This document shows, piece by piece, positions 543 through 13,886 of a stretch of DNA of 64,000 nt. Origin of the DNA: Thermodesulfobacteriota bacterium (GTDB taxonomy: Bacteria > Desulfobacterota > Binatia > UBA9968 > JAJDTQ01); NCBI GenBank assembly GCA_965116635.1, contig OZ220710.1, positions 325,638 through 389,637 on the forward strand, in the 5' to 3' direction. How positions within the stretch are numbered: the stretch's first letter is position 1; every line of letters starts with the position of its first letter. The notes beneath the pieces are model-generated. The model saw only the letters and a program-made list of their open reading frames with translations, searched no databases and was not told the origin of the DNA. A program made the translations under genes and the position numbers.

Positions 543-2351
543 TTGAATACGCGGCGCCCGATGGGATATCCTGGACGACGGTCAGGAGGGTTGAGATTGA
601 CAACCACCGGCATCCGCTACCAACCCGACGAAACGCCCCCGCTGGCCGCCTCCCTGGGCCTCGGCCTGCAACTCGCGGTGCTGAGCGCCACCGTCACCAT
701 CCTGATCCCCACGGTGGTCATGCGTGCCGCCGGCGCTTCGGAAGCCTACCTGTCATGGGCCGTTTTCGCGGCCACCGTCATCTGCGGGGCGGCCACGGTC
801 CTGCAAACGGTCCGGCTCGGCCGCATCGGCATGGGCCAGGCGCTCATGATGGGCAGTTCCGGAGCCTTCATCGCGGTCTGCATCACCGCGGTGGCCGAAG
901 GCGGTCCGGGGCTGCTCGCGACTCTGGTGCTGGCGGCCGCGCTCTTCCAGCTCGTGCTGTCCGCGCGGCTTTCGCTCTTCCGGCGCATTCTGACGCCCAC
1001 GGTCTCGGGGACGGTGATCATGCTGATCCCGGTGGCGGTGATGCCGTACATCTTCGGCATGCTTGGGGATGTGCCGGACGGAAGCCCGGCGGCCGCCGCT
1101 CCCCTGAGCGCCCTTGTCACGGTGCTGGTGATCGGCGGCCTGGCGCTGAAGGCGACCGGAGCGTTGCGGCTGTGGGCGTCGGTCCTCGGCGTCTTGGCCG
1201 GTGCCGTGGTGGCGGCGCCTTTCGGCATCTATGACCTGGGGCCGGTGGCGGCGGCGTCGTGGATCGGGTTGCCCGCGGGCCGGTGGCCGGGCTTGGCCCT
1301 GGACTTCGGTCCGGCGTTCTGGGCGCTTCTTCCCGGGTTCCTGCTGGTGGCCCTGATCGGCTCCATCCGGACCATCAGCAGCTCCATGGCCGCCCAGCGC
1401 ACGTCGTGGCGCCGGCCCCGGGCGGTGGATTTCAGGGCGGTGCAGGGCGCCGCGGCCGTGGACGGGCTCGGCAACCTGATCTCCGGTCTCGCCGGGACGG
1501 TGCCCAACACGGCCTACACCACCGCCGTATCGGTGGCCGAGCTCACCGGCGTCGCCGCCCGTGGCCTCGGGGTGGCCGCCGGGGCGATCCTCATGGCTCT
1601 GGCCTTCCTGCCGAAGGCTCTCGCCCTGGTGGTGGCGATACCGGCTCCGGTGATCGCGGCCTACATGACCGTTATCGTGGCGATGCTCTTCGTCATCGGA
1701 ATGAAGATGGTGTTCCAGGACGGGATCGACTACCGCAAGGGCCTGGTGGTGGGCGTCGCCTTCTGGATCGGGGTCGGTTTCCAGAACGGCGCGGTATTCC
1801 CGGAGTACGTCGCCGACTTCGCCGGCGGTCTGCTCCGGAACGGGATGACTGCGGGCGGTCTCACGGCCATTCTCCTGACCGCGTTCCTGGAGTTGGGCGA
1901 GCCCCGCCGGAGCCGGTTCGAGGGCGAACTCGGGGTTGCGGTGCTACCCGGGATCAACAATTTTTTTGAAGATTTCACGTTCAGAAATGGTTGGGGTAAG
2001 ACAATGGCGGACCGGCTCACCGCCGCCGCCGAGGAGGCGTTGTTGACACTCATGCGGCAGGGTGAGCTCGGCGGCGAGGACCGCGAGCGGCGACTGGGGC
2101 TCACGGCGTACAGAAAGGGCCGTGGGGCGGTCCTCGAGTTCGTGATGGCGCCTGGAGGGGAAAATCTTCAGGACAGGATGATGCTGCTCGCCGAGGACGC
2201 GAGCGACGGGCCCGACGAGTCGGAAATGTCGCTTCGGCTGTTAAAGCACGTCGCGGCATGGGTGCGGCATCAGCAGTATCATGACACGGATATCCTGACC
2301 GTGCGGGTGGAAGCCCGCCAGTTGGAGAACGAGAATGAGCAAGCAGTCTGA
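543..2351 (+). CDS. nucleobase:cation symporter-2 (xanthine/uracil permease) family transporter with a soluble C-terminal extension of about 150 aa
   Basis: 602-aa ORF with many hydrophobic segments and NCS2-like stretches (GSSGAFIAV, NTAYTTAVSVAELTGVA). The hydrophilic tail starts near FEDFTFRNGWGKT. The true start may be ATG 561. The 3' end overlaps the PKS start by 17 nt. Confidence 0.75.
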   Translation: MNTRRPMGYPGRRSGGLRLTTTGIRYQPDETPPLAASLGLGLQLAVLSATVTILIPTVVMRAAGASEAYLSWAVFAATVICGAATVLQTVRLGRIGMGQALMMGSSGAFIAVCITAVAEGGPGLLATLVLAAALFQLVLSARLSLFRRILTPTVSGTVIMLIPVAVMPYIFGMLGDVPDGSPAAAAPLSALVTVLVIGGLALKATGALRLWASVLGVLAGAVVAAPFGIYDLGPVAAASWIGLPAGRWPGLALDFGPAFWALLPGFLLVALIGSIRTISSSMAAQRTSWRRPRAVDFRAVQGAAAVDGLGNLISGLAGTVPNTAYTTAVSVAELTGVAARGLGVAAGAILMALAFLPKALALVVAIPAPVIAAYMTVIVAMLFVIGMKMVFQDGIDYRKGLVVGVAFWIGVGFQNGAVFPEYVADFAGGLLRNGMTAGGLTAILLTAFLELGEPRRSRFEGELGVAVLPGINNFFEDFTFRNGWGKTMADRLTAAAEEALLTLMRQGELGGEDRERRLGLTAYRKGRGAVLEFVMAPGGENLQDRMMLLAEDASDGPDESEMSLRLLKHVAAWVRHQQYHDTDILTVRVEARQLENENEQAV

Positions 2352-12989: not shown

Positions 12990-13886
12990 GTGTGGGAGGT
13001 ACCCGAGCCGCTTTCCACCCGTGACGTCCGCGTGGACGATGACACGGTCATCGTCCTGCGGCGTCACGGCAATCCGGCGGGCCCGCGACTGGTCCTGAGC
13101 CACGGCAACGGGGTCGCCATCGACCTCTACTACCCTTTCTGGTCGCTGCTGGCCGATGACTTCGACCTGGTCGTCTATGACCTCCGGAACCACGGCTGGA
13201 ATGCTGTCGGCAAGTCGCAGAGTCACAACGTTGCGAGATTCGTCAGTGACCACGACCGGATTCTCCGGGCCATCGACCACCACTACGGAAACAAGCCCAA
13301 GATCGGGGTCTTCCATTCCGTCGCCGCCTTGGCCACGCTCTTGTCGGCCAACCTGGGCAGCGAGTTCGCGGCTCGCGTTCTGTTCGATCCGCCCGTGTGC
13401 AAGCGCGGGCTGAACTACGAGGAATTCGATGCCGCCGCCGACCGCGTGGCGGGCATGACCCGCCACCGCACACCCCGGTTTGAGAGCGAGCAACAGTTTG
13501 CCGAGATCCTGCCCTATCTGCCGGTATATCAACGGGCCGTTCCCGGCGTGTTCGATCTCGTCGCGCGGACGACCCTCCGCGAGTCCGCCGACGGGAACGG
13601 CTACGAGCTCCGGTGTCCGCGTGACTACGAAGCGCAGATCATCCAATACGCCGCGCCGTTTGCGATGATGGTGGAACTCGACAAGGTCCGTTGTCCGACC
13701 AAGGTCATCGGCGCGGATCCCACTCTGCCGTTTTCCTACCTGCCGACGCTGGACCTGAGTCATATCCTGACCGTGGACTACGATTTCGTGCCCGAAACGA
13801 CGCATTTTCTGCAGCTCGAAGAACCGGAGAGTTGCGTCGAGATCATGCGTGACTTCCTGGACCGGCATGGCCTCTTGAGTTCCTGA
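12990..13886 (+). CDS. alpha/beta-fold hydrolase (candidate thioesterase / chain-release enzyme)
   Basis: 298 aa with GTG start. HGNG oxyanion-hole motif (LVLSHGNGV), nucleophile elbow GVFHSVAA, C-terminal [12 protein letters not shown] (catalytic His region). Confidence 0.8.

Follow-up and report, generated by a model that had tools for sequence, protein, structure and literature searches.

Gene content of the locus and domain architecture of the PKS

The DNA analysed here (the window) is a 64-kb stretch of contig OZ220710.1 from a bacterium of the class Binatia. On its forward strand, positions 597-13886 hold consecutive genes for a permease, a type I polyketide synthase (PKS), a free-standing acyl carrier protein (ACP) and an alpha/beta-hydrolase, followed by a ClpP gene. 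We consider it likely that this locus is a sup-type cluster ('sponge symbiont ubiquitous PKS') and its host a sponge symbiont. The SupA-like PKS gene (2335-12609, + strand) is a single uninterrupted open reading frame (ORF) of 3424 amino acids, with a G+C content at third codon positions of 0.90 in a window that is GC-rich throughout (~0.59-0.74). Pfam matches and motif reading gave the domain order ketosynthase (KS)-acyltransferase (AT)-dehydratase (DH)-C-methyltransferase (cMT)-enoylreductase (ER)-ketoreductase (KR)-ACP-KS-AT0, with AT0 denoting a degenerate AT. In the protein, the Pfam spans are KS 12-389, AT 575-860, DH 940-1236, methyltransferase 1445-1621, ER 1899-2185, KR 2200-2376, PP-binding 2481-2547 and the second KS ~2575-2943, which is followed by a KS-AT linker. 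The HTH_51 part N-terminal to the methyltransferase begins at residue 1296, and CurL-like_PKS_C linker domains were also matched.

Within the first module, KS1 (2368..3654; all features of the cluster lie on the + strand) carries Cys186, His321 and His361 together with the motifs DPQQR and HGTGT (as EAHGTGT). AT1 (4057..4914) is active by its GHSLGE motif with Ser663, and its specificity motif PAYHS is malonyl-like (xA[F/Y]H) rather than YASH. These domains are followed by the DH (5152..6042), with His971 in HxxxGxxxxP and Asp1141 in DGCFQ, and by the cMT (6220..7197), whose S-adenosylmethionine (SAM) motif EVGAGTG and His1547 motif SNVLHAT are both conserved in 52/52 aligned homologues. The ER (8029..8889) has the NADPH motif HAGAGGVG, the KR (8932..9462) TGGLGGIG, Lys2309, Ser2333 and Asn2350, and the integrated carrier ACP1 (9775..9975) Ser2509 in LGIDSL. 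Judged from these residues, module 1 possesses all catalytic motifs to add one malonate-derived C2 unit, to methylate its alpha carbon with SAM and to reduce it fully, the predicted outcome being a 2-methyl saturated acyl chain on ACP1.

The KR has a histidine (His2346, window 9370-9372) at the position of the catalytic tyrosine, reading NHAAAN where the aligned KRs of AmphB and MAS read YAAAN. The substitution is shared by 59/60 family members, in what is the most conserved domain of the PKS (71-86% identity across phyla). Since this tyrosine is reported to be 'sometimes replaced by histidine' in KRs, including active ones (PMC7327777), His2346 is no argument for KR inactivity.

Downstream of ACP1, the PKS continues with a second KS competent for condensation (KS2, 10057..11163), which bears Cys2739, His2874 and His2914 as well as the motifs DPRQR and HGAGS, and ends with AT0 (11707..12606), a degenerate acyltransferase remnant plus post-AT linker. 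AT0 reads GHDVG, its nucleophilic serine being replaced by Asp3216, and alignment to AT1 revealed the deletion of ~75 amino acids of the small subdomain that includes the specificity motif; the Pfam Acyl_transf_1 match covers only profile positions 2-134 of 319. Loss of the serine and deletion of the subdomain justify the label AT0. Neither a thioesterase (TE) nor another release domain was found on the PKS by Pfam.

A 139-nt spacer separates the PKS gene from that of the free ACP and contains a sigma-70-like promoter match (12627..12656, TTGAAA-18-TATGTT), a match to the consensus only and the sole one within positions 1-15000, where 0.5 would be expected by chance. The SupB-like ACP (12749-12973; 74 amino acids; PF00550 at 3e-12) is preceded by the ribosome-binding site AAGGAGG, and its attachment residue Ser33, in GVSSLD, is conserved in 65/65 homologues. 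The best NCBIfam matches of this protein were type II acyl carrier protein models (acyl_carrier), below their cut-offs.

The hydrolase gene (12990-13886, GTG start) encodes a 298-amino-acid protein of PF12697 with the motifs HGNG (H38) and FHSVA (S110). Its oxyanion motif H38-G39 and putative Ser110-Asp243-His272 triad are invariant among 104 hydrolase sequences. An AlphaFold model based on the alignment of these sequences reached a pLDDT of 79.9 and a pTM of 0.84; an earlier model from 29 sequences (pLDDT 54) was not used. The top fold match of the model in the PDB was the curacin CurM thioesterase (3qit; E 1.8e-10, TM 0.62), followed at similar TM by esterases, Lpx1, haloalkane dehalogenases and the acyl-CoA hydrolase MpaH. 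Searched by sequence, the solved structures yielded weak generic matches only (monoglyceride lipase, esterases; E ~4e-4). The protein is likely the release enzyme, that is, a thioesterase or an acyltransferase. The CurM match fits a discrete enzyme of this kind, the reaction itself not being settled by the fold.

Upstream of the PKS lies a gene for a SupE-like permease of the NCS2 family (xanthine/uracil-type; 597..2351), with a probable TTG start at 597 after AGGAGG within the ORF 543-2351, whose end overlaps the PKS start by 17 nt. The protein matches Pfam Xan_ur_permease at 8.8e-40 and the NCBIfam NCS2/pbuX models below cut-off. Its C-terminal ~150 amino acids (window 1890-2348) form a cytoplasmic extension, for which the sole Pfam signal was a sub-threshold match to HATPase_c_2 (anti-sigma-factor type; E 0.05, positions 9-112 of 127). 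The full-length permease, extension included, is conserved in related loci.

In the rest of the 64-kb window, no further PKS, AT or phosphopantetheinyl transferase (PPTase) gene was found, and PPTase queries from related loci had no match anywhere in it. Rfam and tRNA scans of the window were empty. ClpP (13909-14511), which adjoins the cluster only in Binatia relatives, was rejected as a cluster member. Taken together, these data uphold the architecture put forward in the original prediction, which was made from the letters alone: one 10.3-kb ORF with a C-methylating module and a full reductive loop, a KS2 with an intact Cys-His-His triad, behind it an AT-like domain with neither carrier nor release domain, and separate genes for a 74-amino-acid ACP with its own ribosome-binding site and for an alpha/beta-hydrolase with HGNG and FHSVA motifs. 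The phosphopantetheinylatable serine of the ACP, on which that prediction had been made to depend, is present on alignment. The range 2335-14511 that it had proposed for antiSMASH and Pfam analysis includes, besides the PKS, ACP and hydrolase genes, that of ClpP, which falls outside the system.

Relatives of the cluster and their gene linkage

Homologues of the hydrolase are numerous (4098 at 55-99% identity), the best 120 all being at least 67% identical. We scanned one genome per species, in which 128 relatives of the hydrolase were encoded, kept 80 loci (given L numbers below) and mapped the domains of the window onto them by tblastn. The genomes are almost all metagenome-assembled (MAGs) and represent more than ten phyla, with members of Binatia, Acidobacteriota, Acidimicrobiia, Chloroflexota (Dehalococcoidia), Gemmatimonadota, Latescibacterota, Nitrospinota, Nitrospirales, Rhodothermales, Spirochaetia, and Alpha- and Gammaproteobacteria. 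The closest relatives of the window come from Binatia or 'Deltaproteobacteria' MAGs, with a hydrolase 96% identical to that of OZ244070.1. Isolate series and Candidatus names, among the latter Poriferisocius (Acidimicrobiia), Palauibacter (Gemmatimonadota) and Porisulfidus, suggest that nearly all 80 loci stem from sponge symbionts; no record gives the host.

PKS domains were present within 10 kb of the hydrolase in 73/80 loci and a cMT in 60/80. In 57/80, a free ACP gene lies on the same strand within 1.1 kb upstream of the hydrolase; a Pfam-confirmed Sfp-type PPTase is encoded between the two in 40/80 loci, and 34/80 have the permease. The recurrence of the same architecture beside the hydrolase in 73 independent genome loci shows that the layout of 2335-13886 is not due to chance. 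With respect to the hydrolase gene, the PKS is colinear and upstream in 20 loci and convergent and downstream in 34, while 7 loci have other orders. Since colinear, convergent and divergent orders all occur, the linkage is a functional one that goes beyond inherited synteny.

The relatives also differ from one another in several respects. One Binatia locus (L001) shares 97% identity with the window in the hydrolase and 90% in ClpP, but only 56-80% in the PKS domains (AT1 59%); for locus L004, the values are 87% and 84%, but 85% for AT1 and 89% for ACP1. Such mosaic similarity suggests that PKS alleles may be swapped by recombination between symbionts, a process that could feed the very high supA diversity within single sponges (PMC4245539). 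A Vicinamibacterales MAG has no ER match, with ~190 amino acids between cMT and KR (L063:4658-5226); this apparently ER-less variant would leave a 2-methyl-2-enoyl chain. In Candidatus Palauibacter ramosifaciens (L056), one hydrolase gene is flanked by two PKS copies, and in an alphaproteobacterial locus (L039) the hydrolase gene is present twice, with no PKS inside 10 kb. Several loci of Chloroflexota and Gammaproteobacteria (group L038, L043, L048, L057) contain the permease, ACP, PPTase and hydrolase genes without a nearby PKS. In a strain 98% identical to that of the window (L081), the PKS is called as two ORFs (>2943 and 469 amino acids) that split near the KS2/AT0 boundary (L081:8177-8212), and many database homologues of the C-terminal part of the PKS are short fragments, reflecting real breaks or assembly errors. 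Frameshifts have been reported in 15% of supA amplicons (PMC4245539).

KS2-AT0 is an old internal duplicate of KS1-AT1

The state of AT0 in the window is typical of the family: GHS is retained in none of the 41 complete AT0 homologues, all 41 have the small-subdomain deletion in common, and in Acidimicrobiia members only 162-179 amino acids are left after KS2. KS2, in contrast, is 53-99% identical across the more than ten phyla and has kept its catalytic Cys in 63/63, its first His in 59/63 and its second His in 63/63 homologues. With its catalytic residues conserved in this manner, KS2 is under selection. The four deviating proteins, from Gemmatimonadota/Longimicrobiales MAGs (L040, L051, L053, L055), have Asn in place of the first His (EANGVGS). 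This likens them to the KS0 domains of trans-AT PKSs, which do not elongate, and hints that KS2 may chiefly serve to transfer the chain and not to condense.

In the window, KS1 and KS2 share 64.5% identity; family-wide, mean identities amount to 58% for KS1-KS2 pairs, 71% among KS1 and 64% among KS2 domains. In a neighbour-joining tree (60 bootstraps) of the family KSs and the seven nearest non-family KSs (from Mycobacterium, Streptomyces, Gemmataceae, Anaeromyxobacter and others), KS1 and KS2 formed clades with support of 48/60 and 58/60, respectively, and were united against the outgroups in 60/60. The tree and the identities identify KS2-AT0 as an old internal duplicate of KS1-AT1 and place neither KS within an ordinary assembly line. 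Since the duplication, KS2 has been retained and AT0 has decayed.

Could KS2-AT0 be a non-functional leftover of this tandem duplication, with the chain leaving ACP1 directly and other tasks for the hydrolase and the free ACP? The decay of AT0, with its serine lost from every complete homologue, a subdomain deleted and almost nothing left in Acidimicrobiia, would be in line with such a scenario, as would the missing first His in the four Gemmatimonadota proteins. Yet a dead KS2 would not persist, with near-invariant catalytic residues and as a well-supported clade, while the neighbouring AT0 decays, and the PKS has no release domain of its own. We therefore regard this explanation as very improbable.

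We give even less credence to the locus belonging to an ordinary multimodular cis-AT assembly line that has its other modules elsewhere and makes a complex polyketide rather than a lipid, a reading that we consider scarcely believable. By similarity, the KSs are indeed of the cis-AT modular type: among solved structures, both scored highest against CurL (452-462 bits), then DEBS and Pik (~390-420), MAS (350-369) and animal fatty acid synthase (FAS; ~260-273). For KS1, the best single-domain match was CurL 4mz0 with 462 bits, compared to ~350-364 for MAS and ~260 for FAS. (The chain with the top total score in the PDB, 7ZMA, was rejected as a special relative, as this total sums the scores of two KS domains.) In addition, the PKS terminates after KS-AT, like an interrupted module. 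But the 64 kb contain no second PKS gene, the nine-domain protein has an identical truncated end in the 73 loci of unrelated phyla, and neither a docking partner nor further ACP-less modules were seen in related loci. KS1 and KS2 are, moreover, each other's closest relatives in all bootstraps against the nearest non-family KSs found. A KS phylogeny had been proposed along with the original prediction as the check for an ordinary assembly line; its outcome, a clade of their own for KS1 and KS2 rather than a place inside such a line, leaves the prediction standing.

Probable assignment to the sup family and comparison with other systems

The likeness to Sup-type sponge PKSs, suggested in the original prediction, gains substance from the comparison of gene sets, from homologues found almost only in putative symbiont MAGs and from the literature. 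The set conserved in the family (PKS, ACP, PPTase, hydrolase and permease) comprises five genes, like supA-E, where the letters supB-D presumably stand for the ACP, the PPTase and the hydrolase. The first description of a sup cluster, on sponge metagenome fosmids such as pAPKS18, is reportedly that of Fieseler et al. 2007 (AEM 73:2144), with a further account by Hochmuth et al. 2010; in the former, the Sup domain string is said to be KS-AT-DH-MT-ER-KR-ACP, i.e. one complete module. The Sup PKSs are small, monomodular type I enzymes, abundant and diverse in sponge metagenomes and exclusive to high-microbial-abundance sponges (PMC4245539). SUP clusters occur, independently of taxonomy, in MAGs of Chloroflexota, Spirochaetota, Proteobacteria and Acidobacteriota. 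The pAPKS18 fosmid encodes the permease SupE (ABE03914), and the Sup KS primers rely on the motifs DPQQR and HGTGT (PMC3908369).

The window and its relatives share with these clusters a small PKS with one complete, methylating and fully reducing module, found nearly always in putative sponge symbionts but spread across phyla, a KS1 carrying both degenerate-primer motifs (DPQQR and EAHGTGT), and a permease in the cluster. Compared to the supB-E set, the ACP, the hydrolase and the NCS2 permease are present, and the PPTase of 40/80 related loci is missing from both the cluster and the window. A second difference concerns the host, as Binatia is not among the lineages named as SUP hosts in the literature found. 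The cluster family has been known as widespread in sponge-associated bacteria since 2007, and the locus is likely a further member with a Binatia host and no clustered PPTase.

The swf cluster represents the other sponge-specific monomodular PKS/FAS and likewise combines a single fully reducing module with an unestablished product. SwfA has the order KS-AT-DH-ER-KR-ACP with DPQ(I/V)R and HATGT and is accompanied by the reductase-sulfotransferase SwfB and the radical SAM protein SwfC (PMC3908369). SwfA lacks a cMT and a second KS, both of which the PKS analysed here possesses (the latter with AT0), along with DPQQR and HGTGT. Homologues of SwfB or SwfC are not encoded in the window, and membership of the Swf group was ruled out on these grounds. 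A trans-AT PKS was also rejected, as the AT of module 1 is intact and integrated, only that of module 2 is dead, and no free AT gene occurs in the window. Fungal highly reducing PKSs such as LovF (KS-AT-DH-cMT-ER-KR-ACP) have a domain order identical to that of module 1 and a separate release enzyme, LovD, which folds differently and passes its acyl group on to an acceptor. To our knowledge, LovF-type enzymes have neither a second KS-AT0 nor a free ACP, and we know of no sign of common descent with the PKS described here.

Several points weigh against our assignment and the function we attach to it. Sup membership is deduced from architecture, gene set and distribution and not from a direct alignment to SupA, although all checks made are in agreement with it; none of the protein-search matches or cluster members bore the name 'Sup', and a KS-amplicon query returned short unnamed fragments only. 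No PPTase lies in the 64-kb window. Activity of the KR, with histidine for its catalytic tyrosine, is a prediction, and the role of the permease is a guess. All fold matches of the modelled hydrolase fall at TM ~0.5-0.65, where many unrelated alpha/beta-hydrolases score nearly equal. Finally, we found no demonstration of the product of any Sup PKS in the literature on Sup, in which mid-chain-branched fatty acids are proposed but undemonstrated (PMC4245539).

Proposed mechanism and product

In our preferred scheme, KS1 would accept a fatty-acyl thioester directly as its primer, as a loading module is missing. Module 1 would then act once, or a few times, one round giving 2-methylacyl-ACP1; a single action is suggested by the KS that lies downstream and by the literature, where the lipids tied to Sup are monomethyl. 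The methyl-branched chain would pass from ACP1 to KS2, which may either extend it with malonate on the free ACP (loaded by AT1 or cellular FabD) or merely transfer it to this ACP. The separately encoded ACP is the only carrier available to KS2, which has a dead AT0 and no fused ACP. From there, the Ser-Asp-His hydrolase would remove the chain, and the permease may transport the product or a precursor. The product would probably be a methyl-branched saturated fatty acid, in keeping with the published proposal for Sup. Cooperation of KS2 with the trans ACP and release by the hydrolase had been part of the original prediction and are plausible in view of the conserved KS2 motifs, the tight linkage of ACP and hydrolase genes and the thioesterase as top fold match.

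The same prediction had module 1 act iteratively, like a methylating FAS, for which we found no evidence: the downstream KS marks a hand-over, and iteration would give polymethyl chains instead of the Sup-linked monomethyl acids. On this view, module 1 would be a MAS-like enzyme making multi-methyl-branched chains (as in mycocerosic and phthioceranic acids), with KS2, ACP and hydrolase serving only for termination. MAS, Pks2 and PKS12 do share much with the PKS of the window, namely the domains KS-AT-DH-ER-KR-ACP, the lack of a loading module, recognisably related KR and KS domains, and methyl-branched saturated acyl chains built from fatty-acyl primers. Moreover, the second-best whole-protein match in NCBIfam was the Pks2 phthioceranic acid synthase model, albeit below cut-off, and MAS ranks among the best KR matches. 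MAS, however, is iterative, takes its branches from methylmalonyl-CoA and has neither a cMT nor a second KS. In the window, AT1 is malonyl-type (GHSLG, xA[F/Y]HS) and the branch would come from the cMT, both KSs are far nearer to modular CurL than to MAS, and the conserved downstream KS is not typical of iterative MAS-type enzymes; the lipids linked to Sup are mid-chain monomethyl acids (PMC4245539). We consider iterative synthesis unlikely, and the class of MAS-like iterative mycobacterial PKSs was rejected, as AT1 has GHSLGE/PAYHS and not GHSQG/YASH and a cMT is present.

A different fate of the chain is conceivable if KS2 extended it on the free ACP by one C2 unit that stayed unreduced. Release by the hydrolase would then give a 3-oxo-4-methyl acid, from which loss of CO2 would yield a methyl-branched methyl ketone, or some other non-fatty-acid product would arise, for export by the permease. 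Module 2 itself contains neither a KR nor a DH nor an ER, and PKSs with an inactivated KR are known to release beta-keto acids that decarboxylate to ketones (PMC7327777). The top fold match of the hydrolase, the CurM TE, couples off-loading to decarboxylation. Against this reading, the locus encodes no sulfotransferase or other partner of the CurM kind, and the fold similarity of the hydrolase is generic. As to the curacin pathway in general, CurL gave the best single-domain match among solved structures to each of the two KS-AT didomains, and the PKS contains CurL-like_PKS_C linkers; curacin, however, comes from a long colinear assembly line in which the TE is fused to a sulfotransferase, in contrast to one module with a discrete hydrolase. 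The free ACP resembles those of type II FAS (NCBIfam, below cut-off), so trans-acting reductases could process the intermediate, and such ketones are not reported as sponge signature lipids in the sponge-PKS literature found. A ketone product therefore seems to us quite improbable.

Returning to the fatty acid scheme, we tentatively put forward a more specific version, which is possible but on balance doubtful. KS2, the free ACP and the hydrolase might constitute a hand-off device: the PKS would introduce a single methyl branch from SAM into a fatty-acyl primer of short or medium length, KS2 would deliver the chain to the AcpP-like free ACP, and type II FAS of the cell would complete elongation.

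Other features of the window

Beyond the cluster, the window contains a 9.3-kb stretch (21247-30571) with phage tail genes, encoding tape-measure fragments (22786-25034), a DUF1833 protein (25671-26741) and a GpJ-like tip attachment protein (27003-29912). Two strains of 98% identity (L081, L082) lack the stretch, and their aminotransferase gene directly joins the following gene of the backbone; by its appearance, the stretch is a remnant prophage or tail-like element that entered the strain of the window. Genes for an MMPL transporter (30676-32961) and an MpaB/Lcp-like oxygenase (33207-34259) are present in the window and L082 and deleted in L081. This variable region (30692-34687) sits 17 kb from the PKS, and an MMPL lipid exporter near a lipid-type PKS may or may not be coincidence. 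A second MMPL/RND-type transporter (56575-58872; 765 amino acids, TTG start) is encoded in the stretch of lowest GC content (0.59-0.60; GC skew 0.09-0.13).

On the reverse strand, DUF3179 (17812-18798) is distributed over two adjacent ORFs of 221 and 99 amino acids; the same split occurs in L081 and L082, hence it is not a window-specific sequencing error. Genes of acyl-CoA metabolism are dense between 36111 and 56260 and encode an acyl-CoA dehydrogenase, four family III CoA-transferase domains (two of them in one gene), an enoyl-CoA hydratase, a citrate synthase, a thiolase-like protein with a ChsH2-type OB partner, two TctC-type binding proteins and amidohydrolases. In make-up, the region resembles a catabolic island devoted to an organic acid or to a side chain of steroid type.

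Implications for the sup family

The locus is otherwise one among thousands of public homologues and leaves existing knowledge unchanged. It adds Binatia to the list of Sup hosts, and its intact, uninterrupted copy, on a contig of about 5 Mb, is a reasonable template for expression in a family whose PKS genes dominate surveys of sponge microbiomes and whose product, nearly twenty years on, is still undemonstrated in the literature found. Comparison across the family defines the parts for such expression (the PKS, the free ACP and the hydrolase, with a PPTase added and possibly the permease) and singles out KS2 Cys2739, KR His2346 and hydrolase Ser110 as residues for mutation. Should the chain indeed be handed over to type II FAS, this would explain how a single module can place a methyl group mid-chain in C16-C18 acids and why AT0 can decay. 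The family-wide KR histidine and the occasional KS0-like KS2, seen in the four Gemmatimonadota loci, would then be adaptations of a bridge between type I and type II synthesis.

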